This document shows positions 2,982 through 18,418 of a stretch of DNA of 42,024 nt, in pieces; position 1 is the first letter of the stretch; every line of letters begins with the position of its first letter. Origin of the DNA: Candidatus Fonsibacter ubiquis (GTDB lineage: Bacteria; Pseudomonadota; Gammaproteobacteria; Pseudomonadales; Azotimanducaceae); the NCBI GenBank assembly GCA_964220205.1, contig CAXPUI010000356.1, positions 1 to 42,024 on the forward strand. Direction: 5' to 3'. Both the position numbers and the translations under genes were made by a program. The notes under the pieces are model-generated. The model ran no database searches and was not told the DNA's origin. It saw only the letters and a list, made by a program, of their open reading frames with translations.

Positions 2982-3734
2982 ATGCAGGTAAACAGACTAA
3001 CAGGAACGTTTGGCGCACAAGTTTCGGATATCGATCTCTCTGAGCTGAAAGACCATGATTTCATTCACCTCGCGGACACTCTCTGGGAGCACCAGGTTCT
3101 GGTCTTCAAAAATCAGAACCTGGATGTCAGTGACCATATTCGACTAGGCAGCCTGTTTGGCGAGTTGCACACGCACCCTTCGGCACTGGGTCTACCCGAC
3201 CACCCGGAGGTCCTGGTCATTGCCAATGAAGGCAAAGAGAAAAACATCACTGAGGTATGGCACTCAGATGTCTGTTGCGAGCAACGTCCACCATCAATAT
3301 CAATACTTCAGGCGATCAAGACACCTGATCACGGCGGCGACACCATGTGGGCGAACCAGTATGAAGCACTCAATCGCCTGTCACCGGCTATGCGGGCCAT
3401 GCTTCAGCCACTTCGAGCAACCCACAAAGGGTTCGAGATGGAAGCCACTCATCCCGTCATCCGCACGCACCCTGAAACCGGCCGCCAGGCCCTCTATGTC
3501 AATCACGGTTTTACTTCTCATTTTGATGGCATGACTCAAGAGGAAAGCCTGCCTCTGCTGAACTATCTGATCGATATCGCGGCCAGCCCTGATCTGACAA
3601 TGCGCCATAGCTGGTCAGAGGGTGATATCGTCATCTGGGACAATCGGTGTGTCATGCACTACGCGATCCACGACTACGCGGACGCCTCCAGGCGCATGCA
3701 TCGTGTTACCGTAATCGGGGAGATACCACAATGA
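2982..3734 (+). CDS. tauD: TauD/TfdA-family Fe(II)/2-oxoglutarate dioxygenase (taurine/sulfonate dioxygenase-like)
   Basis: WHSD (HxD iron ligands), GGDTMWAN, THPETGRQALYVN, WDNRCVMHYA and RRMHRVTV are collinear with E. coli TauD. ELHTHP keeps the His70 equivalent. It is only 250 aa because the loop before the THPxxG segment is short. Confidence 0.8.
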   Translation: MQVNRLTGTFGAQVSDIDLSELKDHDFIHLADTLWEHQVLVFKNQNLDVSDHIRLGSLFGELHTHPSALGLPDHPEVLVIANEGKEKNITEVWHSDVCCEQRPPSISILQAIKTPDHGGDTMWANQYEALNRLSPAMRAMLQPLRATHKGFEMEATHPVIRTHPETGRQALYVNHGFTSHFDGMTQEESLPLLNYLIDIAASPDLTMRHSWSEGDIVIWDNRCVMHYAIHDYADASRRMHRVTVIGEIPQ

Positions 3735-4954
3735 CCGAAACTTATGGCGCAGCCAATGGACTCCTGAGCCGCCGGCACCTGTTAAAGGCAGGCGCAGCAA
3801 CACTGGCGTTGCCCGTCATGGCTGATGAAGCCTGGAGACAAACCCCGGGTCAGCCAACCAGCGCTTACGGCGAGCCTTCCCGTTTCGCCCGGCTGCAGAG
3901 AGAACGGGTCAACGCACACCCTTATGGACCTGCGGCAGGGTCGTCATCAACGCCTCTGCAATTCATGAACGGAACCATTACTCCCAACAGCCTGCATTTC
4001 GAAAGACATCACAGCGGCATCCCGGACATCAACCCCGAACGACATGAACTGACCATTTTCGGGCTGGTCGAAAGACCATTGGCCTTCAACTACAGTGACC
4101 TTCTGCGCTACCCCATGATCAGTCGCGTGATGTTTCTTGAGTGTTCCGGTAACAGTTACCAAAATACTGCGCCGGATGCCGCAGACATGACCTGTGGTGA
4201 GCTGAACGGATTAATCTCCAGCGCGGAGTGGACAGGCGTACCGCTCCACCACCTCCTGGAAGAAGTCGGTGTCAAACCTTCAGCGACCTGGGTTATCGCC
4301 GAAGGAGCAGATGCTTCCGGCAACAATCGCAGTGTACCCCTGTCGCTGGCACTCGACGATGCCATGGTTGCCCTTTATCAGAATGGCGAACCGCTTCGAC
4401 CCGCGCACGGCTATCCTGTACGCCTGCTGGTACCAGGATGCGAGGGGAATCTCAGCATCAAGTGGTTACGCAGCCTGAAGCTGCTGGATCGGCCGGCTCA
4501 CACCCGGGAAGAAACCAGCAAGTACTCAGACCTGATGCAGGATGGTATCGCTGGTCAGTTTTCTCTGAAGATGGAGGTTAAGTCCCTGATCACATCGCCC
4601 TCCGGCAGGATGAGCCTCCGTGAAAAAGGCATCTATGAAATTTCCGGCCTCGCCTGGTCAGGGATGGGCGAAATTCGCCGTGTTGAGGTCAGCGCAGATG
4701 GCGGATCAAGCTGGGCTGACGCCGAACTGCAGTCCGAAACCGGACCTCATCGCGCAGTTCGTTTCAGAATTCCATGGCGGTGGCAGGGTCAACCCGCGAT
4801 TTTACAGAGCCGGGCACTCGACAGCTCTGGCAACCAGCAGCCAACGCGTGACAACGCCCTTCGGGGCCACGCACCGGGTCTGGTCTATCACTACAACGGC
4901 ATCCAAAGCTGGCTTGTCAATGAGCAAGGTCAGGTAAGAAACCATTATGCATAG
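3731..4954 (+). CDS. sorA: Sulfite dehydrogenase, molybdopterin subunit (SorA-like, sulfite oxidase family)
   Basis: ATG at 3731 gives the twin-arginine leader LSRRHLLKAGAATLALPVMA. FLECSGNS is the Mo-ligand Cys motif. The ATGA overlaps the stop of the upstream gene. Confidence 0.85.
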   Translation: MTETYGAANGLLSRRHLLKAGAATLALPVMADEAWRQTPGQPTSAYGEPSRFARLQRERVNAHPYGPAAGSSSTPLQFMNGTITPNSLHFERHHSGIPDINPERHELTIFGLVERPLAFNYSDLLRYPMISRVMFLECSGNSYQNTAPDAADMTCGELNGLISSAEWTGVPLHHLLEEVGVKPSATWVIAEGADASGNNRSVPLSLALDDAMVALYQNGEPLRPAHGYPVRLLVPGCEGNLSIKWLRSLKLLDRPAHTREETSKYSDLMQDGIAGQFSLKMEVKSLITSPSGRMSLREKGIYEISGLAWSGMGEIRRVEVSADGGSSWADAELQSETGPHRAVRFRIPWRWQGQPAILQSRALDSSGNQQPTRDNALRGHAPGLVYHYNGIQSWLVNEQGQVRNHYA

Positions 4955-5507
4955 ACTGCTCTGTTTCTGGCCGCTTGCCTTGTGCGTTGCCTCGCTGCTT
5001 TCGTTTCCTCTATCTGCTTGGGCAGAACTCGGCCTGCATCTACAGCCTGCTTTGGGCAAGCCCGCTCCGCATGGGTTTGAAGCCGTCGTCGCGCCTGACG
5101 GTTCCGGCGCACCCGCAGGAAAAGGCACAGCTGAAATCGGCAGGCCTCTATACGATGCTCACTGCGCCGCCTGCCATGGACTCGATGGCAAACTGGCCGG
5201 CAATGCCATCGCCGGGGGTATCGGCAGTCTGCGCAGTGCCAGACCCAATAAGACCGTCGGTAGCTACTGGCCTTACGCCACCACCCTGTTTGACTACATC
5301 AATCGAGCCATGCCTTACGGCAACGAGAAATCATTGCAGGCCGACGAGGTCTATGCCATTACCGCCTATGTGTTACACCTCAATGGTCTGGTTCCAGCGA
5401 CACAGGTCATCAACGCAGACAATCTCTCTCACATAGAGATGCCTAATCGGAACGGCTTTAGAGAGCTGCCCGGGTTTCGCCCAATTTCTGCCGAGGCAAC
5501 GCGCTAG
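4947..5507 (+). CDS. sorB: Monoheme cytochrome c, sulfite dehydrogenase electron acceptor (SorB-like)
   Basis: Signal peptide MHRLLCFWPLALCVASLLSFPLSAWA and a single CAACHG heme-c site. It overlaps sorA by 8 nt. Confidence 0.8.
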   Translation: MHRLLCFWPLALCVASLLSFPLSAWAELGLHLQPALGKPAPHGFEAVVAPDGSGAPAGKGTAEIGRPLYDAHCAACHGLDGKLAGNAIAGGIGSLRSARPNKTVGSYWPYATTLFDYINRAMPYGNEKSLQADEVYAITAYVLHLNGLVPATQVINADNLSHIEMPNRNGFRELPGFRPISAEATR

Positions 5508-6364
5508 CGCTCTGCTTCCTTCTGTTGGGAACCGAAGATTGTTGGTGCTTGCGCCCAATCCGGTGCTGCATGCATGGTCCTGCCTGCAACCGTCAGCAGT
5601 TGGGGTGAATCGTCACCGATGACACAACCACCACTTGGTCCAAGTACGCCATTCGCACCTAACCCTTTGACGGGATAGGAATCCACGGCGGAATAAGTCT
5701 GTAGCAGCAGGGGTCGAACCCTGGGGGAATTGTTGGGATAGCTACCATGCACCATGCAACAGTTATGGACAGTCACGGAACCAGCTGGTCCTTTCAGCCA
5801 GACCACATCATCAATGGCGAGTCGCTCAGCATCGCGATCCTTAATCGCGCCTGCCCAACTACCATCCTCCGCGTAGAGGTCATAGAGTTCGCCCTTGTGG
5901 CTGCCCGGCAGGACACCCATTGGCCCCATGTCATCGTCTACATCAGACAGATAAACACCGATAGTCAGCGGGGAGAAGTCCGTATGCGGCCAGAACTGGA
6001 TGTCCTGGTGCCATTTCACCTCTTCACCACCATCTGACCATTTGTAATTGAGCTTGCTATGGTGATACCGCACTGGCTTACCCAGAATAGCCATCGCGAT
6101 TTCCGCCGCAAGGCCTTCCAGCATGAAGTGCCGGAACGTTTCATGAGCATCAACAGGCGAAGTCAGTCGACGGAGTCGCGGACGCTCTGCGGAATGATCA
6201 GGTTCCACATCAAACCGTCGGTCCGTTTCACCCAACTCTCGACTGAGCTCAACAAACTCCTCCGCGACCGCACTGAGTTCGGTCAGAATGTCAGCAGGCA
6301 CGAAAGACTCAAGCAGCAGGTAGCCATCGTCGTGGTAGGATCTTAATTGTTCCCTGGTAAGCAT
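5504..6364 (-). CDS. Phytanoyl-CoA dioxygenase (PhyH) family Fe(II)/2OG oxygenase
   Basis: The N-terminus LTREQLRSYHDDGYLLLESFVP is typical of PhyH. WHQD supplies the HxD ligands and VHNCCMVHGSYPN the distal His. Confidence 0.85.
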   Translation of the reverse strand: MLTREQLRSYHDDGYLLLESFVPADILTELSAVAEEFVELSRELGETDRRFDVEPDHSAERPRLRRLTSPVDAHETFRHFMLEGLAAEIAMAILGKPVRYHHSKLNYKWSDGGEEVKWHQDIQFWPHTDFSPLTIGVYLSDVDDDMGPMGVLPGSHKGELYDLYAEDGSWAGAIKDRDAERLAIDDVVWLKGPAGSVTVHNCCMVHGSYPNNSPRVRPLLLQTYSAVDSYPVKGLGANGVLGPSGGCVIGDDSPQLLTVAGRTMHAAPDWAQAPTIFGSQQKEAER

Positions 6365-6532
6365 CAGTCACGCGCTCCTGGTCCGTATGTCTATTCAAGC
6401 CAACCGAGTATTCAGGTCATCCGAGCCCCGCGCGGTGACCTGTTAGATCGACACTAACATAAACCCGCTATACCCGCAGGGCATCAGCGTGTTAAACCAG
6501 CCATCGCTCAGCTGAGATCATGGACTCAACGC

Positions 6533-7339
6533 CTAGACACGATCAGGCGGACTGGCTCCGCCGTGATTCAACCCCCCGAATGACTCGAGATGGCCGTCGA
6601 CGTTCATAATCTGTCCGGTGACCTTCCTGGCAGCATCCGATGCCAGGAAGATTGCCATGTCAGCCACATCAGCCGCAGCAATAAACGTCCGCAGGGAAGA
6701 ACCACTGGTGTAACCCTGGCGAATTTCAGCTTCACTGACACCTTTTTCTACTGCTTCCGAGGCAATTACGCGATCCATCCGACTACCCTCAACACTGCCA
6801 GGACAGATGACATTGCAACGAATACCATGAATACCCAGTTCCATCGCCAGCGACTTGGTCAGCCCGATGACTCCCCACTTGGAACTTGCATAAGGCGCCC
6901 TCAAGGGATAACCATGCCATCCGGCCGTCGACGCAATATTAATGATGTTCCCTCGACCCTGGCGCTTCATGTGAGGGACGACCTCCCTGCAGCTGATGTA
7001 CATAGCGTCAAGATTCACCGCCATGCAGCGTCGCCAGTCCTGGATAGAGATGTCTTCGATACCTGACGTTGGCCCCTGGATGCCTGCACAATTGACAAGC
7101 ACATCAATCGAACCGAAGACGTCAACATGCTGGCGCACTGCGGCCACCACACCCTCCTCATCAGACACGTCAACGACCGTATGCAGGTACTCCTGAGGCA
7201 GCCCATGCAATGCGGATTCATCGATATCAATAACATGCACGGCCGCGCCCGACCCGGAAAAACCTTCAGCAATAGCTCGACCTATGCCCGTTGCACCGGC
7301 TGTGACCAGGACGCTTTTTGGATTATCTTTATTGGTCAT
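6533..7339 (-). CDS. Short-chain dehydrogenase/reductase (SDR)
   Basis: The cofactor loop is TAGATGIGRAIA and the catalytic motif is YASSKWGV (YxxxK). 268 aa. Confidence 0.9.
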   Translation of the reverse strand: MTNKDNPKSVLVTAGATGIGRAIAEGFSGSGAAVHVIDIDESALHGLPQEYLHTVVDVSDEEGVVAAVRQHVDVFGSIDVLVNCAGIQGPTSGIEDISIQDWRRCMAVNLDAMYISCREVVPHMKRQGRGNIINIASTAGWHGYPLRAPYASSKWGVIGLTKSLAMELGIHGIRCNVICPGSVEGSRMDRVIASEAVEKGVSEAEIRQGYTSGSSLRTFIAAADVADMAIFLASDAARKVTGQIMNVDGHLESFGGLNHGGASPPDRV

Positions 7340-7689
7340 CGAGTCGCCATCATCATCAACTCCACGGGTAGGTGACGCCGTACTATAGAGATGCCTATGC
7401 TAACCCCCTTGGCTTGTGATACAAACTCAGGGAGCAAAGAATGATTCGGCGCATGAAAACAGGTGACGAATCTTTCGGGGACATGACCGCACTCGAGATT
7501 AACGTGACTGCAGCGACCAAGGTTTCGCGTTATGCTCAGATCCGCCTGCGCGTCGGGTACAACCAACCATCGACCCGGCAGGCCAGGATCGATCGACGCT
7601 CAGCCATTCTGGTAAGCGGCGAAACAGCATGAACCGGAATGGCCAGTAGCGAGCACTCTCCTGGCTTGTCAAAACGATGAACTGATCCT

Positions 7690-8727
7690 ATGAACGAAGC
7701 AGGACCTATAACCGATATTACCGCTGAAATCTGGTCTATCCTGGCCGGCAATGTGCCGAGTGACCTGCATTGGCGGACATTGTTGATTACCCTGGTCATC
7801 GGCACACTGATCTACATCATCCGCAACGGTCAGGGCGCCAGGGACGCCGGTGGCCGGGCTCGAGACAGCCAGGCAGACAGGTGGCCGCTGCTCAACTATC
7901 TGCTGCCGAAAGACATCTATACGCATGTCTCGGCGCGAGTCGACATTTGGCTCTGGATACTGGAACGAATCCTCCGCCCCCTTTGGGCCGTCAGCCTGCT
8001 CGCTACCGTCGGGCCTGTCACAGAACAATTCATGATCAGCATTCTGCAGTATCTGATCGGCAACTCTCCCGGGCTTGAGGTTAACTACGCTTGGATGCTG
8101 CTTTACAGCCTGGTTATCCTGCTCCTTTACGACCTGGTTTTTTTCCTGATCCACTACACGATGCATAAGGTTCCTGCGCTCTGGGCAATACACAAGGTTC
8201 ATCACTCTGCCGAGGTCCTGACGCCCCTGACTCGATATCGGGAACACTTCATGGCAGGCCCGATCTGGGCCGCGGGTGCAGCATTAAGCTACGGGCTAGC
8301 GGGTGGAGTTTTTGGCTGGCTGTTTGCCGGCAGCATCACTCAGGCAACCCTGTTCAATATCGGGTTCTTCGCGCTGCTGTTCGGTTTCACCGGATCTTTT
8401 CGCCACTACCATGTCCAATTCCGTTACTGGCCCTGGCTGGAAAAATGGTTGCAGAGCCCGGCGATGCACCATGTTCATCACAGTTACCTGGAGCAACACT
8501 GGGACAAGAATTTCGCCGCCATTACGAGTATCTACGACCGTATGTTTGGTACCCTTTATGTACCCGAAACCGACGAGTACACGCCGTGGGGGATAGGCCC
8601 GGATACCCAGGCGGAATATCGCACTTTCCTGCAGAATACCTCCGGACCATTCAGGGACTGGTACCATATGCTTCGGGGAGGACGCTCACCTCAAGCCGGG
8701 GCACAAGTGGAAGCTGATGTCCCCTGA
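7690..8727 (+). CDS. Fatty acid hydroxylase / sterol desaturase superfamily membrane di-iron oxygenase
   Basis: Histidine boxes HYTMH, HKVHHS and HHVHHS followed by IYDRMFGT. Several TM segments. Paralog of the partial gene at 1-434. Confidence 0.85.
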   Translation: MNEAGPITDITAEIWSILAGNVPSDLHWRTLLITLVIGTLIYIIRNGQGARDAGGRARDSQADRWPLLNYLLPKDIYTHVSARVDIWLWILERILRPLWAVSLLATVGPVTEQFMISILQYLIGNSPGLEVNYAWMLLYSLVILLLYDLVFFLIHYTMHKVPALWAIHKVHHSAEVLTPLTRYREHFMAGPIWAAGAALSYGLAGGVFGWLFAGSITQATLFNIGFFALLFGFTGSFRHYHVQFRYWPWLEKWLQSPAMHHVHHSYLEQHWDKNFAAITSIYDRMFGTLYVPETDEYTPWGIGPDTQAEYRTFLQNTSGPFRDWYHMLRGGRSPQAGAQVEADVP

Positions 8728-8766
8728 CCACCTCGACTAACGATCAGAAAACAAAAATAATCGGAC

Positions 8767-10308
8767 ATGCAGCCAAAACATCCAGAACCCAGTCTCGACC
8801 GCTTCATCTTTTTTTCCGGTAGCAGTCTGCTCATCGCCGTCGTCGTGCCGATTATTCTCTTCCCTGAAGCGGCTGCAGCGGCCATCAATCAGATCTTCTC
8901 TTTCCTGACTGTGGAACTGGGGATTCTTTATGTCCTTGCGGCGATCGGGACATTGACGGTTCTACTGGTTCTTGCTTTCAGCTCTCTGGGGAAAATCAGG
9001 TTTGGTTCCAACCCGCCTCCCTATTCACGCTTCAGCTGGATCGCCATGTTGTTCTGCTGCGGTATTGGCGCGAGCGTCATCTACTGGGGAGCAGCCGAGT
9101 GGGTCTTTTATTATGAGTCACCACCCTTTGGTGTAGATCCCCGCAGCGACGAGGCGGTGATCTGGGCAAGCACCTACGGCATGTACCACTGGGGACCAGT
9201 CGGATGGGCACTTTATTGCCTGCCGGCTATTGCCATCGGCTGCAGCTACCATGTTCGCCAGAAACCTTCCCTCAAATTAAGCGATGCCTGCGAGCCCGTC
9301 ATGGGCAATTGGTCAGGTCGATGGCCCGGTCGGGTCATCGATATCCTCTTCATCATCGGATTAATCGGCACGGCATCTACCGGCCTGGCCCTCGGGACCT
9401 CTATCGTTGCTTCAGCCATTACACGAGCCACCGGGCTCGAAGATGGCTTCTCCATGCAGCTCATGATCGTCGCGTTGGCCACAACCACTATCGCCTACTC
9501 CGTTTACCGGGGCCTGGACGAAGGCATTAAAGTGCTGAGTCTCATTAACGCTGTCATGGCGTTGATTCTTATCGCGTTTGTCCTGCTCACGGGTCCGACC
9601 CGATTTATTCTTGAGATGGGTGTTGTTTCCGTAGGACACTTGATGCAGAACTTCATCAAGATGACGACCTGGGCAGATCCTCTGCAGCGAGCCACATTCG
9701 TAGAGAGCTGGACTGTTTTCTACTGGGCCTGGTGGCTCGCTCTGGGTCCTTTTGTCGGGATGTTCGTTTGCAAGATATCCGAAGGGCGGACGGTACGCGA
9801 GGTGATCTTCGGCATGCTTGGCTGGGGCTCTCTAGGATGCGCACTGTTTTTCATTGTCCTGGGTAACTATGCCTATTTCCTGGAAACTACCGGTGTGCTG
9901 CCTGTGATCGAGGAGACCATGCAGGTCAGCCCTTCGGCGGCGATAGCCTCAATGATGACCACACTGCCCATGGGCACATTCTGGCTCATTTTCCTGGCCG
10001 TTATCGGTCTGATCGGTACCGCGACAACCTACGACTCAGCTTCCTACACGCTGGCGGCCGGCGCCACCAGGAACCTGACCGAACAGGCCCACCCTGCTCG
10101 CTGGCATAGAGTCTTCTGGGCGCTGGCCCTTGGCGTGTTGCCTGCCTGCCTGCTCTATCTCGGAGGTATTCGTGTCCTGCAGACCGCATCCGTCGTTGCC
10201 TCAATACCCTTGCTGGGTGTCTATATCCTGATGGCTGTATCAATTTTCAAAACCCTGAACGCTCACGCCGACGGAAAAATCACATTTGAAGGAGATCCAA
10301 ACCCATGA
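8767..10308 (+). CDS. BCCT-family (betaine/carnitine/choline-type) transporter
   Basis: 513 aa, about 12 TM. The Trp-rich BCCT signature helix is present: WTVFYWAWWLALGPFVGMFVCKISEGRTVRE. Confidence 0.9.
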   Translation: MQPKHPEPSLDRFIFFSGSSLLIAVVVPIILFPEAAAAAINQIFSFLTVELGILYVLAAIGTLTVLLVLAFSSLGKIRFGSNPPPYSRFSWIAMLFCCGIGASVIYWGAAEWVFYYESPPFGVDPRSDEAVIWASTYGMYHWGPVGWALYCLPAIAIGCSYHVRQKPSLKLSDACEPVMGNWSGRWPGRVIDILFIIGLIGTASTGLALGTSIVASAITRATGLEDGFSMQLMIVALATTTIAYSVYRGLDEGIKVLSLINAVMALILIAFVLLTGPTRFILEMGVVSVGHLMQNFIKMTTWADPLQRATFVESWTVFYWAWWLALGPFVGMFVCKISEGRTVREVIFGMLGWGSLGCALFFIVLGNYAYFLETTGVLPVIEETMQVSPSAAIASMMTTLPMGTFWLIFLAVIGLIGTATTYDSASYTLAAGATRNLTEQAHPARWHRVFWALALGVLPACLLYLGGIRVLQTASVVASIPLLGVYILMAVSIFKTLNAHADGKITFEGDPNP

Positions 10309-11099
10309 AAAACCTGTTCTCAGTAGACGGCAAGGTCGTCATCGTCACCGGCGGGTCCCGTGGCATTGGCGAAATGATAGCCGCGGGCTTTGTCGCCAAT
10401 GGCGCCCGCGTCTATATCAGTTCGCGAAAGGCAGACGTCTGCGATGCCGCCGCTGCTCGACTGAGCGATGAATTCAACGGCGAATGTCACTCCATCCCCG
10501 CCGACCTCTCGAAGATGGAGGGTATCCAAGCATTCGTTGACGCGTTCACCTCTCGTGAGTCACAGCTCGATGTGCTCATCAATAATGCCGGCGTGGCCTG
10601 GGGAGCGCCTATCGAGGAGTTTCCCGAATCTGGCTGGGACAAAGTCATGGATACGAACGTCAAGGGGCCCTTTTTCCTGACGCAGAAGTTGCTGCCCCAA
10701 CTGGAGGCTGCAGCAAGCTTCGAAGAACCAGCCCGGGTGATCAACGTCGGTTCCGTGGACGGTATCAAAACGCCCGTCTTCGACAATTTCTCTTACGGTC
10801 CCTCTAAGGCAGCCATTCATCATATGACCCGCGTACTGGCAGCTCACCTCATCAAACGCAATATCATCGTCAATGCCATCGCTCCCGGCCCTTTTCCAAC
10901 CTGGATGCTCAGCACCGGTGTCGGCGGCGGTGGTGATGTCGACAAGACTGACTGGGATGCCGTCGGCCGGAGTAACCCGCGAGGCCGCGTCGGCACACCT
11001 GAAGATATCGCTGGTCTCGCTATATTCTTGAGTTCAAAAGCCAGCGGCTTTACTGTAGGCGAAGTTATAACCTGCGACGGAGGATCAGTTGTTTCATGA
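10305..11099 (+). CDS. SDR-family oxidoreductase (RhlG/3-oxoacyl reductase-like)
   Basis: VTGGSRGIGEMIA, NNAG and YGPSKAAIHH motifs. The ATGA overlaps the BCCT stop. Confidence 0.9.
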   Translation: MKNLFSVDGKVVIVTGGSRGIGEMIAAGFVANGARVYISSRKADVCDAAAARLSDEFNGECHSIPADLSKMEGIQAFVDAFTSRESQLDVLINNAGVAWGAPIEEFPESGWDKVMDTNVKGPFFLTQKLLPQLEAAASFEEPARVINVGSVDGIKTPVFDNFSYGPSKAAIHHMTRVLAAHLIKRNIIVNAIAPGPFPTWMLSTGVGGGGDVDKTDWDAVGRSNPRGRVGTPEDIAGLAIFLSSKASGFTVGEVITCDGGSVVS

Positions 11100-12166
11100 A
11101 TAATTCAAATCTACCGGGCCGGCTCGGCAACCCTGAGCTTACCGTCACCAAGGACCCTCGCATTGATCCGCGGGTCGCGGCTCTCCTGGAAATGGGCGAA
11201 GGTCTCCCGGAAATAGAACCTCCTGTCAACGCTACCTATGAAGAAAGTCTCGCCTTCTGTAACGAGTTTGAGGCCCAGGACACTGCCATGCACGCGGCAC
11301 AACTGGAAATGATGCCTGATTTCGGCCACATTGAGCAGCGCACGGAAACTATCGAAGGTCCTGATGGTAACGACCTGACCCTTTATATCCACCGGCCTCG
11401 AGGCAGTGAAGACAATCTACCGTGCCTGGTCCATACCCACGGAGGGGGCATGGTCCTGATGACAGCCGCTGATCCAGGCTGTATACGCTGGCGCAACAGC
11501 CTGGCGGAAGCAGGCATAGTCGTCGTCGGCATCGAATTCCGCAATGGCGGCGGTCGACTGGGTAACCATCCGTTCCCCGCGGGTCTTAACGATTGTGCCG
11601 CGGGTGTCAGATGGGTATATGCCAATCGAGAGGCACTTGGCATTACCGGTCTTGTCGTATCAGGCGAAAGCGGTGGTGGCAATCTAAGCATCGCCACTAC
11701 ACTCAAGGCGCTGAAAGAAGGCTGGGTCAATGAAATTGATGGCGTTTATGCACAGTGTCCCTACATCAGCGGAGCCTACGACGATCCACCGGCACACTTG
11801 CTTTCCCTGGTCGAAAATAATGGCTACATGCTCAGCTGTGAGATGATGGCGCCACTTGTGAAGGTCTATGATCCGGACGGCAGTAACCGCAGCAACTCCC
11901 TGGCCTGGCCTCTGCAAGCAACCGTCGACGAGCTAAAAGGTCTGCCTCCCCACGCCATATCAGTCAACGAACTGGATCCGCTGCGTGACGAAGGCCTGGA
12001 CTTTTACCGCAAGCTGCTTTCAGCCGGTGTTTCGGCGACAGCACGAACCATTAACGGCACCACCCACGCTGCCGACCAGGCCATGGCTGATGCCATACCC
12101 GAGGTCTATCGTGCATCCGTGGAAGCAGTGACTGGCTTTGTAAAGGCCGTCACATCAAGCCGCTAG
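11096..12166 (+). CDS. Alpha/beta hydrolase, hormone-sensitive-lipase (family IV) type esterase
   Basis: HTHGGGMV is the HGGG oxyanion hole, GESGGGN the nucleophile elbow, DPLRDEG the acid, and GTTHAAD the His. The ATGA overlaps the SDR stop. Confidence 0.85.
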   Translation: MNNSNLPGRLGNPELTVTKDPRIDPRVAALLEMGEGLPEIEPPVNATYEESLAFCNEFEAQDTAMHAAQLEMMPDFGHIEQRTETIEGPDGNDLTLYIHRPRGSEDNLPCLVHTHGGGMVLMTAADPGCIRWRNSLAEAGIVVVGIEFRNGGGRLGNHPFPAGLNDCAAGVRWVYANREALGITGLVVSGESGGGNLSIATTLKALKEGWVNEIDGVYAQCPYISGAYDDPPAHLLSLVENNGYMLSCEMMAPLVKVYDPDGSNRSNSLAWPLQATVDELKGLPPHAISVNELDPLRDEGLDFYRKLLSAGVSATARTINGTTHAADQAMADAIPEVYRASVEAVTGFVKAVTSSR

Positions 12167-12172
12167 AGTCCA

Positions 12173-13240
12173 GTGAAGACCCATCTCAGTAAGCCAGAGA
12201 AACATCACCTGTATGAGCAGGGTTACGTCATCATCCGTGATGCGGTCTCCCCTGAAGCAGTTGATGCTGCTCGCGAACTGATCGAGGGCTATCTGCCGAG
12301 GGACGAACACCAGCTCCTGGTCCCTGGCGAACTTGCCACCAACGACAAGATCACTGGTCTTTATAACGACCATGCAATGGCGCAGATCATCGCCAATGAG
12401 ATGGGACCCACCCCCCCTGTGATCAGCTGTCAGGTCGCTGTGATCCCTCCCTATAACAGGCTGGGTGGCGAGCCTGGCCTGCATGTCGACGGCGGCTGGT
12501 CCGGTGCCATCCCGGAAGAAGCCGAAGCCATCGACCTGGAAACTGGCAGACCGAGAGATGCAGAACGGTATTTCGGTCAAAACGACGAACTTCGTGGCAC
12601 CAATGACGGCCTGCTCTGGATGAACAAGGAAAGGACATTATCCTACGGCAGCTACACAGCGCTCGTCGGTATTGCACTCAACGATCAGCTGGAACCCGGC
12701 AACGGTCAATTCGCCGTTTTACCCGGCACTCACGAGATCGTCCAGCAGTGTTTCCGGGCGCAGCGAGACGCTGGCGGGGTAATCGGCCCGGAAGGACAGG
12801 ACTGGCCCAGGATCGGTGTCAGTGAACAAGGTAAACCCTATTGCAACGGTCTGCCCAACCGGATTCGACACATCGCTGAAAAACGCCGGGCAGCCGGCAG
12901 CAAATCAGATCAATGGCCATGGCCGGAACTGGAGCCTGTATTGCTCAGGGCGGGTGACGCTGTACTGACCCTGCACAGTTGCCCACATACACCCACGCCC
13001 AACCTGGGGCCGAACCCGCGCATGAACATCTACTTCAGGATCAGGCGACTTCGAGATGGAAACCCGAACGAGGGCTCAAGACGCGTTGCACACGGCGTCA
13101 GCGACCATCCGGATCGCGGGTATTTCGGCCAGTTTCTGGAATACCCGGACGGTTATGATCCGTGGGCAATATCCGTCGACAAGCTCTGCGACCACTGGAG
13201 CGAGTGGGATGGTATGCAGGAATTTTTACATAATCGATAA
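12173..13240 (+). CDS. PhyH-family Fe(II)/2OG dioxygenase
   Basis: The N-terminus KPEKHHLYEQGYVIIRDAVSPEAV has a PhyH-type start. GLHVDG supplies HxD and LTLHSCPHTPTPN the distal His. A GTG start 6 nt after the esterase stop is required to keep the conserved N-terminus. Confidence 0.75.
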   Translation: MKTHLSKPEKHHLYEQGYVIIRDAVSPEAVDAARELIEGYLPRDEHQLLVPGELATNDKITGLYNDHAMAQIIANEMGPTPPVISCQVAVIPPYNRLGGEPGLHVDGGWSGAIPEEAEAIDLETGRPRDAERYFGQNDELRGTNDGLLWMNKERTLSYGSYTALVGIALNDQLEPGNGQFAVLPGTHEIVQQCFRAQRDAGGVIGPEGQDWPRIGVSEQGKPYCNGLPNRIRHIAEKRRAAGSKSDQWPWPELEPVLLRAGDAVLTLHSCPHTPTPNLGPNPRMNIYFRIRRLRDGNPNEGSRRVAHGVSDHPDRGYFGQFLEYPDGYDPWAISVDKLCDHWSEWDGMQEFLHNR

Positions 13241-13261
13241 TCATCACTAGCGAGCCGCAAC

Positions 13262-14047
13262 ATGTCTGACCCAATTATTGTTCATCAGGAAAACGCCGTA
13301 ACCGTTCTGTCAATCAATGACGCACCCTACAACCGCATGTCACTTGATTTCATGGATCACCTGGAAGAACTTGTTCAGGAAATTTCTGACACACCCTCAA
13401 CGAGGGCAGTCGTTCTGACCGCTGAGGGGGAAGACAACTTTTCCGTCGGTATGAACCTTAAACAGTTTGCTGAGGGTGTAGAACGCAAAGGCAGCGCCGA
13501 TGCTCTATTGGATCAGCGCCTGGCGGTCATAAGAGCCATTGAGACCATGGGCAAACCCTGGATTGCCACCTTGTTCGGCTATTGTCTCGGAGGCGGCCTC
13601 GAAGTTCCTCTTGGCTGCCACTTCAGATTAGCCGCTGCAACCGGTGCGCAGATCGGTTTACCGGAGATGGATATTGGTGGAGTGCCCGCCTGGGGTGGTA
13701 GCGCCCGACTGACCAAGTGTGTCGGTGAACATCACGCGATCGATATGATTCTCCGGGCAAAGAAGATATCCGGCCCTGAAGCCTACCGGATTGGCCTGGT
13801 CCATGAAGTTCACCCAATTGACGAACTCAAAGCTGCGGCGATCAGGTTGGCTCACGAGTTGACAGCAATGCCAGCAGGCAGCATTCGAAGCATGCTGCAG
13901 GTTATCGTCGGGGGTAGAGAAAAACCTATCGACGAACTGATACAGGCCGAACGACAAGCGGTGATCGACAATCGCGGTACTGCGGATTCCCGAGAGGGCA
14001 TGCTGGCTTTCCTGGAAAAGAGAGATCCTGTTTTCAATCAGTCCTGA
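13262..14047 (+). CDS. Enoyl-CoA hydratase/isomerase (crotonase) family protein
   Basis: Crotonase fold motifs FGYCLGGGLEVPLGC and GLPEMDIGGVP are present. Both canonical Glu positions are retained. Confidence 0.85.
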   Translation: MSDPIIVHQENAVTVLSINDAPYNRMSLDFMDHLEELVQEISDTPSTRAVVLTAEGEDNFSVGMNLKQFAEGVERKGSADALLDQRLAVIRAIETMGKPWIATLFGYCLGGGLEVPLGCHFRLAAATGAQIGLPEMDIGGVPAWGGSARLTKCVGEHHAIDMILRAKKISGPEAYRIGLVHEVHPIDELKAAAIRLAHELTAMPAGSIRSMLQVIVGGREKPIDELIQAERQAVIDNRGTADSREGMLAFLEKRDPVFNQS

Positions 14048-15158
14048 GCAGGTCACGACGCAGGAAAACAAGCACATATACGGCAATGTAAAGACCAATG
14101 ACCAACAAGCCAATCCATTCGATTTTCAGTGGCGTCAGCTGGTAGAGCAGGACCAAGCCGGATAACACAACAAAATTGAAAACAACATATAGGGGCAAGC
14201 CCAGCCGGTCTCTCGTCATACCCATATTCTGGGTATACAGTCTCGTCAGAGAATCCAGCGAATTGATCACAAAAATCACACCGACCACGACCATCGCGAG
14301 GCGACCCGCTCCTGCAACCTCCAGGTTTCCGCTGTAGTAGGTGTACAGCACCGAAAACCAGATCCCAATGGGTATGGAAGGCACGACCAGCAGTGCAATG
14401 AACAGGTGCCAGGCTTTGATTCCCCCGGTGAAACGGGCAACGAACTGACCGATCATAATGCTCCACGCGAACCACCAGTAGAGATAAAACTCATGGTAAT
14501 CCGACATCGGCAGCACAAATCGGTGCAGGTGAACAAAATAATCAGACAGGCTGCCAACCGCCGACAGCAGGCCCTGCAGCCCCTGTGCTGACATCCACCA
14601 AAGGCCGGCAATCAGCAACAGGAACAACCAGGTTGAACCAACACTCAGGATACGAACAAAACGTATGTCACTACTCGATAAGGCAGCCGCCAGGATGACA
14701 ATAGCAACCAGACCATAGCGCTGCGTTTCGGATACCCCGGATATATAGTCCGGGAGGTAGCTGAAGAACAGGTAAGCGGTAAAGGCGCAAGTCGCTATAA
14801 CCACCAGGTTGTTTACCATTTTGATGACGCGGATCTCGAATAACTTCAACTTAGGCTCAACGATGCAGAAGTAGAAGGTGGTCAGAAAATAGAAGCCCCA
14901 GACGAGAAAACCCCAGAAACCAAATTCTATGGCCAGTGGATTAGTAAAGGCATAAACGTCGTCTTCAGCATAGACGGCATAATCAACAAGCGGGAACATG
15001 ATCAACCCGACATCGAGACCCGACGTAAACAGAATGGCCATGAAGGTAAAAAACGATACGCCCATAGGCCCCTGGCAGACAGTATTACGCCAAAGGCCGA
15101 CGACAATAAGGGAAGTCCCCAGCGCCAGAATCATGGCGATACTGAGAATCTCCGTCAC
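14034..15158 (-). CDS. Short BCCT-related membrane protein (374 aa)
   Basis: TSGLDVGLIMFPL resembles the BCCT Gly-rich TM segment, and LYWWFAWSIMIGQFVARFTGGIKAW resembles the BCCT Trp-rich signature helix. The protein is about 130-300 aa shorter than normal BCCTs. The GTG start overlaps the MFS stop (GTGA). Alternative ATG at 15134. Confidence 0.6.
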   Translation of the reverse strand: MTEILSIAMILALGTSLIVVGLWRNTVCQGPMGVSFFTFMAILFTSGLDVGLIMFPLVDYAVYAEDDVYAFTNPLAIEFGFWGFLVWGFYFLTTFYFCIVEPKLKLFEIRVIKMVNNLVVIATCAFTAYLFFSYLPDYISGVSETQRYGLVAIVILAAALSSSDIRFVRILSVGSTWLFLLLIAGLWWMSAQGLQGLLSAVGSLSDYFVHLHRFVLPMSDYHEFYLYWWFAWSIMIGQFVARFTGGIKAWHLFIALLVVPSIPIGIWFSVLYTYYSGNLEVAGAGRLAMVVVGVIFVINSLDSLTRLYTQNMGMTRDRLGLPLYVVFNFVVLSGLVLLYQLTPLKIEWIGLLVIGLYIAVYVLVFLRRDLLRTD

Positions 15159-16432
15159 TGGACAACCTCGCGAGCAGCCAAGAGCCTCTGCAGCCGGAAA
15201 GCTGCCACCGCACCAATCAAACCCGTCACCACGATGATCCCAAAATAGATCGAGTAACCGGTACGGCCAGGCCAGTATTCCAGGATCGGACCATTGATCA
15301 ACGGCAGATAGATGTCCGGCGAATAGCCAATAAAGCTCACTACTCCGATGGCCAGACCCTTGGTCTGAAGAGGTAGATCGGCTCTATCCAACGTGCCCCA
15401 GAAAATACCGCGTACCGCATAGGTCAGCAATCCAATCGTCAGAACGATAACCAGCAACCCCGTTACTGATGTGTCCACTGGCACCAGGATAATGCCCAAC
15501 AAGGAGACGGTACTGGCTAACAACAACCAGCCCAGGGTCTTCTCGAGATTGAAGTAGTCACCCACAAATCCCGCACCAATCGCGCCAATCGGACGCATCC
15601 ACAATTTCGCTACGGTAATGGTACCAACAGCAACTGCGGACATACCGAACTGCGTTTGCAGGTACCCTGAAAAAGAATAAGTCGCCCAGAACAGCTGATA
15701 ACCTGACCATATGCAGATTGCTCCCAGCCACAACTCTTTGCTGGCGACGATGATCTTCAGGCTCTCCCACGTCGTCAATGTTGCTGCGGTATCGGCTGGT
15801 TGATCACCTCCATCATGCTCGACCTTCAGATCCTCAACAACCAGCACCACAAGCGGAGCGATCAGCAATGCAAATCCGACATAGAAGTAAATGACTTTCT
15901 GTAACGCGACTTCGGTGGGTTGCTCGAGACTGGTCAGGGAATAGGAAAACCAGGCCACGGCTATACTCGCGAGAATCGCCTCCACCAGGCCACGCCCGCC
16001 ATCAAGAATGCCAAAGAATCTGCCCTGCTCCTGGGATCGTGCAATAACAGCAACACCCTTGATCATCGCCGCCCAGAAGGTCAGGCCTGTTGCGATCCCC
16101 CAGCCAAAGAAAATGATCCTTAATTCACTATAGCCTGGCATGGTGGAAAACCAGAGTCCCAGGGCAGCCGTCAATACCAGGGAGAAAGAAATCAGCCATC
16201 GCGGCGAAAATCGGTCCGACAGCCAACCACTGGGGATATAGGTCACAACAAACATGACGCCCAACAGGCTGTAGCACTGCCCGAGCTGCGTAAGAGTGAT
16301 CCCAAACGACTCCAGTATCGACACTTCAAAGTTCTGTCTGAGGTAGATCAAGGGATAGATGGCACCCCCAGCCAGGGTGATCAGCGCCAGCTGGATATAA
16401 CGTTTGGTGTCCGATACGACATTCGTGGCCAC
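15155..16432 (-). CDS. MFS transporter
   Basis: 425 aa, about 12 TM, with an MFS-like loop motif GWLSDRFSPRW after TM2. The GTG start has GGAG 9 nt upstream. Confidence 0.8.
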   Translation of the reverse strand: MATNVVSDTKRYIQLALITLAGGAIYPLIYLRQNFEVSILESFGITLTQLGQCYSLLGVMFVVTYIPSGWLSDRFSPRWLISFSLVLTAALGLWFSTMPGYSELRIIFFGWGIATGLTFWAAMIKGVAVIARSQEQGRFFGILDGGRGLVEAILASIAVAWFSYSLTSLEQPTEVALQKVIYFYVGFALLIAPLVVLVVEDLKVEHDGGDQPADTAATLTTWESLKIIVASKELWLGAICIWSGYQLFWATYSFSGYLQTQFGMSAVAVGTITVAKLWMRPIGAIGAGFVGDYFNLEKTLGWLLLASTVSLLGIILVPVDTSVTGLLVIVLTIGLLTYAVRGIFWGTLDRADLPLQTKGLAIGVVSFIGYSPDIYLPLINGPILEYWPGRTGYSIYFGIIVVTGLIGAVAAFRLQRLLAAREVVQ

Positions 16433-16532: not shown

Positions 16533-17447
16533 ATGCCACTGGAAATGAATCGCCACCCCTTCATCACCTGTGCTGTTACCGGCTCAGGCAGCACCCAGGA
16601 CAAATCTCCACATGTTCCACGGTCACCCAAAGAAATCGCCGCCAGCGCCATTGACGCTGCCAAGGCGGGCGCAGCGGTGGTGCATTGCCATGTCCGCGAA
16701 CCGGATACCGGAGCACCCTCAAGACGGCCTGAGCTGTACCGCGAACTGATCGACAGAATCAGGGACTCTGATACAGACGTTGTTGTTAACTTCACAACGG
16801 GCATGGGCGGCGACCTGATATTCGGTGATCCTGAAAACCCACTGCCATTACAGGAAGGAACAGATATGGCTGGCGCCAGCGAAAGGGTTCAACCCATTCT
16901 CGAGTGTCTGCCGGAAATCTGTACCCTCGACTGCGACACGATGAACTTTGCCGAAGCCGACTACGTGATGACCAACACGCCAGGTATGTTGCGCGCCATG
17001 TCCTCTATGATCCAGAACAGCGGCGTCCGACCCGAAATCGAGGTTTTCGAAACTGGTCATCTCTGGTACTGCAAACAACTTGTTGAAGAAGGCCTGATCG
17101 ATGACCCGGTGCTCATTCAGATGTGCATGGGCATCCCCTGGGGGGCACCGGATGACCTCAACACGTTCATGGCCATGGTCAACAATACACCGTCGAACTG
17201 GATCTTTTCTGCCTTTTCAATCAGTCGCAACCAGATGCCTTACACTGCTGCCGCAGTGCTTGCCGGTGGTAACGTCAGGGTAGGCCTGGAGGACAATATC
17301 TGGCTGGACCGGGGCGAACTGGCAACCAATGCTCAACTGGTCGAACGTGCTGCCTCCGCAATTACCAACCTCGGCTGCACCATCATGGGACCAGAGGAAA
17401 CTCGCGATAAACTCGGACTGGTAAAGCGCGCGCCGAGAGTCACCTAG
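16533..17447 (+). CDS. BKACE family beta-keto acid cleavage enzyme (3-keto-5-aminohexanoate cleavage enzyme/DUF849)
   Basis: The N-terminus PFITCAVTGSGSTQDKSPHVPRSPKEIAASAIDAAKAGAAVVHCHVREPDTG is the hallmark BKACE TIM-barrel start. 304 aa. Confidence 0.85.
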   Translation: MPLEMNRHPFITCAVTGSGSTQDKSPHVPRSPKEIAASAIDAAKAGAAVVHCHVREPDTGAPSRRPELYRELIDRIRDSDTDVVVNFTTGMGGDLIFGDPENPLPLQEGTDMAGASERVQPILECLPEICTLDCDTMNFAEADYVMTNTPGMLRAMSSMIQNSGVRPEIEVFETGHLWYCKQLVEEGLIDDPVLIQMCMGIPWGAPDDLNTFMAMVNNTPSNWIFSAFSISRNQMPYTAAAVLAGGNVRVGLEDNIWLDRGELATNAQLVERAASAITNLGCTIMGPEETRDKLGLVKRAPRVT

Positions 17448-17469
17448 GGATCGAGAATCACCTAGGGAT
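17440..17469. repeat. 12-nt direct repeat TCACCTAGGGAT x2 separated by 6 nt
   Basis: The copies lie at 17440-17451 and 17458-17469. Each contains CCTAGG. The first supplies the TAG stop of the + strand BKACE gene and the second the TAG stop of the - strand NPP gene. Confidence 0.6.
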
Positions 17470-18418
17470 AAAGAAAACTCCTGCCATCCAACTGACTGGC
17501 TACATCCTGCGGAATCGTTAATCGCAGGTAGGTCGCAATGGACGGCAGGATGTCAACGATTGCAGCTCCAGCATTGAAATTGGCATTCAATGCCGGATAA
17601 CTGGTGACAATCCAGATGGTTCTTTCGCGCGGAGACTGACCACCGTGACTTCTGCCAGTTGCGCTATCCCTGCCATGATCAGTCGTGACTATAACAAGCC
17701 ACTCCTCGCCATGTCTGCGCTGTCGCTCAGTGACGGCATTCCAGATATAGCCTACCTGCTCATCAGCGAATCTCACCGCAAGGTCCATGAGCTCTCCATC
17801 ACCGTGGGCATGGCCAATATCATCCGTGTACTGCAGATAGACCCAGGACAGATCAGGCGCAACTTTGCTGATCAGGCTGGCCGCTTCCCGGGCCACTCTG
17901 CGATCAATGTTTCGAATATACAAACTGACAGGATCATGGGGAAAATTCTTCACATCGTGTTCATAGCCGTCCGCGATGTAATCCAGCTTTCGTCCGCCGG
18001 CGGCGGGCAAGCCATCACCAAGCAATTTGGTTCTGTTGTCTTCCCACGTCGAAAAGATCGCGGTTCTTAACGCCGGCCTGGCATGCTTCGCGATACGAAA
18101 GATGTCCCAGTAGCTATAATCCGGTGCGGTAACAGCATTGTCATAGACATTGTGCTTGTTGGCCCAGGTACCTGTCAGCAGGCTCTGGTAGGCGACAGCA
18201 GATACCGTCGGACTTCTCGACGGCCCAGTGGGATCGCCACCCACATAGGCTCGCGTATAACCACCCTGGCTCGCTATATCATCAATAGCCGGGGTCTCCA
18301 CTCGTTCCAGGACGTCAGCAGGGATACCGTCCAGTAGAATAAAAACGGCTTTACGCTCTTCTTCCGCTAGTACCGTTGCCTGCATCAGCAATAACCCTAG
18401 GGCGAACCAGAATCTCAT
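17462..18418 (-). CDS. Secreted alkaline-phosphatase-superfamily enzyme, nucleotide pyrophosphatase/phosphodiesterase (NPP) type
   Basis: Signal peptide MRFWFALGLLLMQATVLA. Metal and nucleophile motifs are LLDGIPAD, SPTVSAVAY, YTDDIGHAHG and VTTDHGRD. Confidence 0.75.
   Translation of the reverse strand: MRFWFALGLLLMQATVLAEEERKAVFILLDGIPADVLERVETPAIDDIASQGGYTRAYVGGDPTGPSRSPTVSAVAYQSLLTGTWANKHNVYDNAVTAPDYSYWDIFRIAKHARPALRTAIFSTWEDNRTKLLGDGLPAAGGRKLDYIADGYEHDVKNFPHDPVSLYIRNIDRRVAREAASLISKVAPDLSWVYLQYTDDIGHAHGDGELMDLAVRFADEQVGYIWNAVTERQRRHGEEWLVIVTTDHGRDSATGRSHGGQSPRERTIWIVTSYPALNANFNAGAAIVDILPSIATYLRLTIPQDVASQLDGRSFLYP

Follow-up and report, generated by a model that had tools for sequence, protein, structure and literature searches.

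This analysis concerns a six-gene cluster at positions 7690–14047 of a contig of 42,024 nucleotides (nt) (CAXPUI010000356.1 of assembly GCA_964220205.1, deposited as Candidatus Fonsibacter ubiquis and placed by GTDB in the Azotimanducaceae, Pseudomonadales); the whole of this stretch is referred to here as the window. The cluster encodes, in this order, a membrane protein of the FA_hydroxylase superfamily, a transporter of the BCCT family, a short-chain dehydrogenase/reductase (SDR), an esterase, a protein distantly resembling the PhyH oxygenases (PhyH-like protein) and a crotonase (Table 1). It is a real and probably co-transcribed catabolic cluster, of which BCCT, SDR, esterase and PhyH-like protein form the invariant core, FA-hydroxylase and crotonase being optional. 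The reading that we prefer, tentatively and with somewhat less than an even chance of being right, is that the operon is specific to this lineage and serves the catabolism of a zwitterion with a carboxyl group and a sulfonium or ammonium head, which may be delivered in ester form.

The six genes lie on the same strand and are separated by junctions of, in order, +39, −4 (ATGA), −4 (ATGA), +6 and +21 nt. These values, given in a first-pass annotation of the sequence, are borne out by the list of open reading frames (ORFs), as are its six family assignments by Pfam. The genes make up the longest same-strand run within the window, and it is likely that one transcript spans all six. The annotation had also described the cluster as translationally coupled. 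Since stop/start overlaps of the ATGA type are present only at the BCCT–SDR and SDR–esterase junctions, this description is valid for three genes (BCCT, SDR and esterase) and does not extend to the remaining junctions, where there is no overlap. Clear ribosome-binding sites of the GGAG type are found only upstream of the SDR and esterase genes. The +39 gap 5′ of the BCCT gene contains a 9/12 promoter-like match at 8733–8761; promoter-like matches in the consensus scan were at chance level (4 sites found versus 6.8 expected), terminator matches were likewise not above chance, and the Rfam scan revealed no riboswitch and no Rfam family. The catalytic motifs are intact in all six proteins. None of them reaches the cut-off of an NCBIfam equivalog model, the BCCT passing the generic BCCT subfamily model only.

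Conservation was followed with the PhyH-like protein, the FA-hydroxylase and the SDR as anchors. With the PhyH-like protein and one genome per GTDB species, 80 loci were obtained, mostly from metagenome-assembled genomes (MAGs) labeled Pseudomonadales or "Ca. Azotimanducaceae", and the proteins of the window were compared with them by tblastn. On six contigs from independent assemblies, all carrying exact copies of the PhyH-like gene, the gene order is unchanged; with their identical synteny they represent one species, which is found in Tara, JGI and ENA assemblies. Only one of the 80 loci, L010 (PhyH-like protein 81% identical), retains the cluster. Its order is PhyH (−), SDR (−), then BCCT, SDR, esterase, PhyH-like protein and crotonase, followed by an MFS transporter (−) and a β-keto acid cleavage enzyme (BKACE) (+). 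FA-hydroxylase, short BCCT-like gene and phosphodiesterase gene of the window are absent from L010, and the layout of L181 is the same. A further variant, L090, was found with the FA-hydroxylase as anchor (77% identity): it has FA-hydroxylase, BCCT, SDR, esterase, PhyH-like protein and a convergent short BCCT gene, and no crotonase. With this second anchor the operon was absent from L091–L093 and about 80 metagenome loci. The first-pass annotation had named co-occurrence of all six genes in related genomes as a test of its proposal. As a set they do not co-occur, an outcome that goes part of the way toward refuting the proposal: the FA-hydroxylase is present in the window and L090 and absent from L010/L181, and the crotonase is present in the window and L010/L181 and absent from L090. 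The four-gene core, by contrast, is kept in all three arrangement variants, which come from different species, its proteins in L010 and L090 being 69–92% identical to those of the window (88–92% for the SDR). To judge from the taxonomic labels of the related loci, the arrangement appears to occur only within one small group of marine Pseudomonadales that are uncultured.

The closest solved relative of the BCCT in the PDB is DddT of Psychrobacter sp. D2 (1e-140, 473 bits, 44% identity over 493 residues), which is a demonstrated Na+:dimethylsulfoniopropionate (DMSP) symporter (PMC13270143). Other characterised BCCTs score much lower (BetT and CaiT ~222–224 bits, BetP 170), and on sequence the transporter is assigned to the DddT (Psychrobacter) clade, of which two functional members are only 42% identical to each other (PMC13270143). 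It stays below the NCBIfam cut-off for the CaiT equivalog (373.7 bits versus 541) and also below those for YeaV, betaine_BCCT and BetT, its scores on the CaiT and YeaV models exceeding those on the BetT and betaine models; within the family it stands on the DddT/CaiT side. The Trp box of transmembrane helix 8 (TM8) reads WTVFYWAWW. The twelve residues named by the DddT study (PMC13270143) for DMSP binding or entry were mapped (DddT numbering: A99, G101, W105, Y112, W140, S204, W313, F316, Y317, W320, W321 and Y324). Seven are identical (W105, W140, W313, F316, Y317, W320 and W321) and five are changed (A99G, G101S, Y112F, S204G and Y324L). In DddT the mutations G101D, Y112F and S204A led to loss of activity (PMC13270143). 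All five changes recur in the operon-linked BCCT orthologues of L010 and L090. The BCCT of L091, for comparison, retains G101 and S204, with Phe at position 324, so that it has only A99G and Y112F in common with the BCCT of the window. Because the binding pocket is altered, the substrate is probably not DMSP itself; we infer a carboxylated onium compound akin to DMSP or carnitine.

The SDR has RhlG (2b4q) as its best PDB match (2.7e-67, versus 4e-37 for the runner-up) and contains the motifs TGxxxGIG and YxxxK. It is RhlG-like, of the β-ketoacyl reductase type. Its family is unusually conserved, identity remaining at 77% or more throughout the 120 best clusters (clustered at 90%). Stand-alone RhlG-like SDR genes are often found near genes for TauD, aldo-keto reductase and MaoC dehydratase (loci L174–L180). 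The esterase matches Est25 (4j7a, 7.7e-125) and brefeldin A esterase (1jkm, 1e-86) and has both the HGGG oxyanion motif and the nucleophile motif GESGG (GxSxG) of family IV. It is a cytoplasmic family-IV (hormone-sensitive lipase-type) carboxylesterase of the Est25/brefeldin A esterase subgroup; a signal peptide is not evident from its sequence. The PhyH-like protein has 327 homologues, and every one of these for which the source gives a name is called "hypothetical"; it has no NCBIfam match at all and no sequence relative in the PDB. H104xD106, H268/H272 and R283 are invariant in 35 aligned sequences, which gives the HxD/E...H triad and the Arg for 2-oxoglutarate (2OG). An AlphaFold2 model (pLDDT 85, pTM 0.87) retrieved SyrB2, KanJ, HygX and PHYHD1 in a Foldseek search (probability 1.0, E values from 1e-9 to 5e-12). 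The fold is shared with these solved members of the PhyH clan, with identities of only 12–17% and TM-scores of only 0.4–0.6. The protein is therefore best described as a predicted, divergent Fe(II)/2OG oxygenase of the PhyH clan, from an unannotated family, and the HxD triad would make it an enzyme of the hydroxylase rather than the halogenase type.

The crotonase reaches no NCBIfam cut-off. Its best matches are generic enoyl-CoA hydratase models, CaiD not being among the best 25, and its PDB matches include 3-hydroxypropionyl-CoA dehydratase (5zai, 1.6e-35). Both catalytic Glu residues, in GGGLE and LPE, were identified by eye. It thus has the features expected of a generic short-chain enoyl-CoA hydratase and is an accessory member of the cluster. 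The BKACE had already been noticed by the first-pass annotation 2.5 kb downstream of the operon, and there it is. L010 (94% identity) and L181 have it at the corresponding place as well, adjacent to transporter and dehydrogenase genes. Its score lies below the NCBIfam cut-offs for Kce, the dioxohexanoate enzyme and the 3-oxoadipate enzyme, and its closest PDB match is 3c6c (8e-84). According to a NetSyn preprint, active-site group G5 of the BKACEs covers carnitine degradation. The annotation had further stated that the window is without a Rieske oxygenase, a CoA transferase or ligase and an HADH-type dehydrogenase. This holds for all ORFs of at least 150 amino acids and for the two that are truncated at the ends of the window: in none of them was a domain of the Rieske, CoA-transferase/ligase or HADH (3HCDH) type found, and neither were CoA_transf_3 or AMP-binding domains as in CaiB/CaiC, nor dddD, dddX, dddP, a cupin lyase or dmdA. 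No characterised counterpart came up in the literature when BCCT was combined with BKACE or with FA-hydroxylase/sterol desaturase, in agreement with what the annotation had said of its novelty.

On the preferred reading the pathway would run as follows. The BCCT would import a zwitterion of the kind of DMSP or carnitine, with a carboxylate and a sulfonium or quaternary-ammonium group. This substrate may arrive as an O-acyl or other ester, and the esterase would then strip off the ester group. There is a precedent for this in Acinetobacter baumannii, where a BCCT gene is directly followed by that of a cytoplasmic hydrolase of ~40 kDa that frees carnitine from acyl-carnitines (PMC13631058). The Fe/2OG oxygenase would hydroxylate a C–H bond, the SDR would interconvert the β-hydroxy and β-keto groups, and the neighboring BKACE, using acetyl-CoA, would split the β-keto acid into acetoacetate and an onium-acyl-CoA. 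The crotonase, where present, could hydrate this product or eliminate its head group. The order esterase, PhyH-like enzyme, SDR, BKACE, crotonase is chemically reasonable, and formation of the onium-acyl-CoA by the BKACE would account for the missing CoA ligase and at the same time supply the substrate of the crotonase.

The FA-hydroxylase is an accessory member of the cluster that lies outside the conserved core. It belongs to the FA_hydroxylase superfamily, also labeled sterol desaturase family (PF04116, 75.7 bits versus a cut-off of 31), and in 33 homologues the His boxes HxxxH, HxxHH, HxH and HHxHH are invariant (H155, H159, H168, H171, H172, H239, H241, H260, H261 and H263; H264 nearly so). 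The only curated match is a weak one to OlsE (36 bits versus a cut-off of 475). The family comprises 1841 homologues, many of which stand alone. In the window, L090, L091 and L135, the gene is accompanied by that for the short BCCT-like protein, which is only 21% identical to the operon BCCT and is missing from L010/L181; it may represent an undescribed, truncated BCCT subfamily. The phosphodiesterase of the window has a 61% identical homologue in L091, near FA-hydroxylase and short BCCT. FA-hydroxylase, short BCCT-like protein and phosphodiesterase thus belong to a second set that moves separately from the core. In L091, where the FA-hydroxylase is 72% identical, its gene comes after dmdA on one strand, and the facing run encodes short BCCT, a protein of the platelet-activating factor (PAF)-acetylhydrolase family, BetA, an SSF transporter, an APH-fold kinase and the phosphodiesterase.

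When the neighbors of 75 members of the FA-hydroxylase family were clustered and then named with NCBIfam, choline dehydrogenase BetA (above cut-off) was found adjacent in 11 loci, a betaine-aldehyde-dehydrogenase-like aldehyde dehydrogenase in 8, BCCT-type transporters in 7 and DMSP demethylase DmdA (above cut-off) in 5. Homologues of BetA, BCCT or DmdA/GcvT were present at a distance of up to 5 kb at 25 of 84 FA-hydroxylase loci and at 4 of 80 PhyH-like loci from similar taxa, which served as controls (Fisher p = 2.6e-5); the loci are phylogenetically not independent, which detracts from the argument and makes the enrichment suggestive rather than proof. The data support a link of the family with choline-, betaine- or DMSP-type compounds, and most likely the enzyme acts on a related compound of this kind and is not an obligatory step of the core route. 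One may go further and regard core plus BKACE as an undescribed route for an abundant algal zwitterion and, separately, the FA-hydroxylase family as a missing membrane oxygenase for onium compounds. The zwitterion would then be neither DMSP nor glycine betaine nor carnitine, and could instead be a β-hydroxy sulfonium or ammonium acid or its ester, from which the BKACE would form an onium-acyl-CoA with no need of a ligase. Roles conceivable for the hydroxylase would be oxidation of DMSP to dimethylsulfoxonium propionate (DMSOP), a step whose enzyme was still unidentified according to a review of June 2026 (PMC13360808), or cleavage of an ether with release of a choline or betaine head group. 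This proposal, in both its parts, we regard as improbable.

Three observations on the oxygenase families stand beside these results. At the very start of the window (3–431, +, cut by the window start) lies the C-terminal part of a second FA_hydroxylase-family protein, which matches that of the operon weakly and locally (29% over 69 residues); L181 carries a full-length FA_hydroxylase gene (292 codons) at the corresponding place, upstream of EamA. In a different "Ca. Azotimanducaceae" genome (L007/L023, 10001–14178) the PhyH-like gene precedes those for MadL, MadM, a 35%-identical FA_hydroxylase and a TM2-domain protein; MadL and MadM being malonate-transporter subunits, the two oxygenase families are here combined with a transporter in a second and different way. 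On plasmids, tblastn detected no PhyH-like homologue, and the FA-hydroxylase matches (~30% identity), which lie beside a GNAT acyltransferase gene in polysaccharide/glycosyltransferase loci, proved uninformative.

Several findings speak against the preferred reading. Five of the six families, all except the BCCT, are also typical of fatty-acyl metabolism. The window has no CoA ligase or transferase, known lyase or demethylase, and there is no regulator inside the unit. Membership of the DddT clade does not fix the substrate either, since two metagenomic DddT homologues tested by others did not transport DMSP (PMC13270143). Of the PhyH-like loci, 79 of 80 (homologues with up to 72% identity) have varied, lineage-specific surroundings, as a consequence of which the gene had to be discarded as a synteny guide to function; almost all of the ~80 FA-hydroxylase loci (also up to 72% identity) are in unrelated contexts, and outside the clade SDR orthologues of 79–85% identity stand alone in unrelated contexts, too. 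As the arrangement is found only in very close relatives, synteny lends little support to a function, and the operon may have arisen recently as a mosaic. Since only a few uncultured species have it and its parts move independently of one another, its ecological weight may be small. These findings can be accommodated by the assumption that there is no single pathway at all: independently useful genes would have been packed into a flexible island rich in oxidative enzymes, the five enzymes having as substrates fatty-acyl or isoprenoid lipids or various dissolved organic matter, and the BCCT being an unrelated osmolyte importer. In line with this, the three genes used as anchors (PhyH-like, FA-hydroxylase and SDR) are all scattered in other genomes; around the cluster, gains and losses are frequent and affect FA-hydroxylase, crotonase, short BCCT, phosphodiesterase and a TetR-TauD-sulfite-oxidase block; and the window as a whole contains five Fe/2OG oxygenases, an enzyme resembling Baeyer–Villiger monooxygenases (BVMO-like), a luciferase-like monooxygenase and a CoxSML-type enzyme. 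We nevertheless consider this assumption unlikely, although it is to be taken seriously: the ATGA overlaps join BCCT, SDR and esterase in one translational unit, the four-gene core survives in three species despite the rearrangements around it, and the pocket of the BCCT is specialized, conserved and not BetP- or BetT-like.

If there is a single pathway, its substrate could be sought closer to DMSP or closer to carnitine. In a route for sulfonium compounds of the DMSP family, for example a β-hydroxy sulfonium acid such as gonyol or an ester of DMSP, import by the DddT-like transporter would be followed by oxidation of the β-hydroxyl group by the SDR and cleavage by the BKACE to acetoacetate and DMSP-CoA, from which the crotonase would eliminate dimethyl sulfide (DMS) and hydrate the acryloyl-CoA formed to 3-hydroxypropionyl-CoA. 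The 44% identity to DddT, when two functional DddTs share only 42% with each other, is in keeping with this, as are the 3-hydroxypropionyl-CoA dehydratase among the PDB neighbors of the crotonase and the relatives of the FA-hydroxylase that adjoin bona fide dmdA genes. There is also a precedent in the conversion of DMSP-CoA to acryloyl-CoA and DMS by DddX (PMC8163506). However, five of the 12 DMSP-contact or entry residues differ, including positions at which DddT mutants were inactive; the two metagenomic DddT homologues just mentioned did not move DMSP; the DMSP lyase and demethylase genes looked for in the window are absent; and gonyol as substrate is pure conjecture on our part. This route is distinctly unlikely. 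The first-pass annotation had leaned toward a non-orthologous γ-butyrobetaine/(acyl)carnitine pathway. In such a pathway the BCCT would import the compound, the esterase would deacylate acyl-carnitine, the PhyH-like enzyme would hydroxylate γ-butyrobetaine to carnitine, the SDR would form 3-dehydrocarnitine, the BKACE would cleave this to acetoacetate and betainyl-CoA, and the crotonase would handle the CoA product. The adjacent and conserved BKACE would suit such a pathway, acetoacetate as product would fit the divergent second SDR, which resembles 3-hydroxybutyrate dehydrogenase, BCCT next to a hydrolase is the known acyl-carnitine design of A. baumannii, and the BCCT scores are higher on the CaiT/YeaV than on the BetT/betaine models. 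But the transporter, expected to be of the carnitine (CaiT) type, falls below the CaiT cut-off and is much nearer to DddT (473 versus ~222 bits), and the SDR, expected to be the carnitine-route dehydrogenase, is RhlG-like and no known carnitine dehydrogenase. Moreover, an HADH-type carnitine dehydrogenase, CaiB and CaiC are missing from the window; the crotonase is dispensable, has no CaiD model among its best 25 NCBIfam matches and has both hydratase Glu residues, yet betainyl-CoA chemically offers no bond to be hydrated; and the PhyH-like family occurs in dozens of genomes without onium-related neighbors. We regard the carnitine pathway as improbable here. Finally, the FA-hydroxylase might resemble alkylglycerol monooxygenase (AGMO) and cleave an ether-linked betaine lipid or ether phosphocholine lipid, the onium head group so freed (trimethylhomoserine or choline) entering the core route. 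The set of genes around the enzyme in L091 (short BCCT, PAF-acetylhydrolase-family protein, betA, APH-fold kinase and phosphodiesterase homologue) and the enrichment of the family within 5 kb of betA, BCCT or dmdA/GcvT would be compatible with such a function. It is highly improbable all the same, because the search of curated models gave no sign of closeness to AGMO, its only match being the weak one to OlsE, the core is intact in L010/L181, where the hydroxylase is absent, many members of the family stand alone, and a lipid-uptake system is not present.

The operon was also compared with characterised systems. In the dddBCXT and dddD-dddT clusters of Psychrobacter sp. D2 and Halomonas HTNK1, genes for catabolic enzymes share their transcript with that of a BCCT importer belonging to the DddT clade. 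The BCCT of the window shares with DddT the TM8 Trp box and seven of the 12 contact or entry residues. In contrast to these clusters, the window has no DMSP lyase (DddD or DddX), linkage to the gene of which (dddD/dddX) was the criterion used in the DddT paper (PMC13270143), and no DddB/DddC-type dehydrogenase; its enzymes are SDR, esterase, Fe/2OG oxygenase and crotonase, and the five divergent pocket residues are fixed in the clade. The carnitine operon bcct-hyd(ACH)-cntAB of A. baumannii is comparable in that its BCCT gene directly precedes that of a cytoplasmic hydrolase of ~40 kDa, which de-esterifies the onium ester after import (PMC13631058), and the hocS-cdh route of Pseudomonas aeruginosa in that it uses a BKACE (PMC9321204), the enzyme that here neighbors the operon. 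Unlike these systems, the window is without Rieske CntA/B and HADH-type carnitine dehydrogenase, the dehydrogenase being an RhlG-like SDR. As in caiTABCDE of Escherichia coli, a BCCT and a crotonase-fold enzyme are found in one operon, but the BCCT does not reach the CaiT cut-off, CaiB/CaiC are lacking, and the crotonase has generic models as its best matches and is absent in L090. The PhyH-like protein resembles PHYHD1, KanJ, HygX, SyrB2 and ectoine hydroxylase in fold, HxD...H triad and conserved Arg, but is ~70–100 residues longer than these solved members and reaches no curated NCBIfam model. The FA-hydroxylase is, like OlsE, sterol desaturases, AGMO and carotene hydroxylases, a membrane protein with complete di-iron His boxes, but its recurrent neighbors are choline dehydrogenase, BCCT and DMSP demethylase genes rather than genes of lipid synthesis. 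In sum, the cluster lacks the defining features of cai- and cdh-type carnitine systems except for the BKACE, and those of the ddd systems except for the transporter clade; it would be a BCCT-headed operon for onium catabolism composed of two unannotated enzyme families and common ones.

The significance of such an operon lies in the fact that marine bacteria turn over much algal zwitterion, including DMSP, betaines, carnitine and less studied relatives, and that several steps of this turnover, oxygenase steps among them, are still without a known gene (PMC13360808, June 2026). The cluster combines a DddT-clade importer with a re-shaped pocket and a set of enzymes unlike that of any characterised onium pathway. 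It also draws attention to two unannotated families worth testing, the divergent Fe/2OG oxygenase and the membrane di-iron hydroxylase linked to onium genes. Should the substrate be found, an additional route in the marine cycle of sulfur or nitrogen osmolytes would be added.

Table 1. Genes of the cluster and neighboring genes referred to in the text (positions in the window; aa, amino acids).
Feature	Position	Strand	Length	Pfam evidence	Remarks
FA_hydroxylase	7690–8727	+	345 aa	FA_hydroxylase PF04116, 6e-21	
BCCT transporter	8767–10308	+	513 aa	BCCT, 2.4e-136	
SDR	10305–11099	+	264 aa	adh_short, 1e-47	
Esterase	11096–12166	+	356 aa	Abhydrolase_3 PF07859, 1.3e-31	
PhyH-like protein	12173–13240	+	355 aa	PhyH, 8.5e-8; weak, no single stretch passing	GTG start
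Crotonase	13262–14047	+	261 aa	ECH_1, 2.5e-42	
Ordinary PhyH-family Fe/2OG oxygenase	5504–6364	−		PhyH, 5.4e-28	upstream of operon
Second SDR	6533–7339	−		adh_short, 5.3e-52	divergent from operon
Short BCCT-like membrane protein	14034–15158	−	374 aa	BCCT, 8.3e-7; marginal	
MFS transporter	15155–16432	−		MFS_1, 4.2e-20	between operon and BKACE
BKACE	16533–17447	+		PF05853, 3.9e-98	2.5 kb 3′ of operon
Type I phosphodiesterase-family protein	17462–18418	−		Phosphodiest, 3.3e-16	

BKACE, MFS transporter, second PhyH oxygenase and second SDR are conserved neighbors of the operon. The MFS transporter is kept in L010 (81% identity), the upstream PhyH oxygenase, which has weak similarity to ectoine hydroxylase and PhnY*, in L010 (86%) and L090 (73%), and the second SDR in L010 (74%); all three are present in L181. 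The second SDR scores below cut-off on the NCBIfam models for the 3-hydroxybutyrate dehydrogenase subfamily (204 bits) and FabG (220 bits). In L091 an analogous arrangement of hydrolase, SDR and BCCT from different hydrolase families is found at 1692–6907 (−), where genes for a C69 peptidase, a beta-lactamase-fold protein, an SDR (50% identical to the upstream SDR of the window) and a BCCT (43% identical to that of the operon) lie on one strand.

No intergenic gap on the gene map is larger than ~350 nt, which leaves little space for an overlooked gene. An ORF of 63 codons at 7441–7632 (+), although called by gene finders in six same-species assemblies, is probably no gene since it matches no family and is not retained in L010. 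When the upstream intergenic regions of the window and L010 were compared, only ~30 nt were found to be conserved, beside the start of the divergent SDR gene. They were rejected as an operator for the operon; their minus strand resembles the −10 region of the divergent gene. At the other end, the crotonase gene and the short BCCT-like gene are convergent and overlap by 14 nt at their 3′ ends (14034–14047), so that there is no space for a terminator hairpin between them.

The region as a whole is an oxygenase-rich catabolic island. Besides the PhyH-like protein and the upstream PhyH oxygenase, Fe(II)/2OG oxygenases are encoded at 2982–3734, 25507–26670 and 28305–29336, which makes five in 42 kb, two of the TauD and three of the PhyH type. 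The TauD protein at 25507–26670 (387 aa) was considered as a γ-butyrobetaine hydroxylase (BBOX)-like enzyme and rejected; it is taurine-dioxygenase-like, matches Pfam TauD only and has no N-terminal domain of the GBBH type. The block at 2324–5507 begins with the gene for a TetR regulator, after which come those for a TauD-family dioxygenase, a sulfite-oxidase-like molybdoenzyme and cytochrome c; it resembles a unit for sulfonate desulfonation and sulfite oxidation. It is absent between EamA and the upstream PhyH gene in L010/L181, which indicates an insertion or deletion beside the operon. The stretch 29462–36303 encodes a CoxSML-type molybdenum hydroxylase with CoxG, the BVMO-like flavoprotein and the luciferase-like monooxygenase. 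At 40243–42024 (+), cut by the end of the window, lies a partial fusion of class II aldolase and SDR domains, whose domain architecture presumably corresponds to that of the rhamnulose-1-phosphate aldolase/alcohol dehydrogenase fusions.

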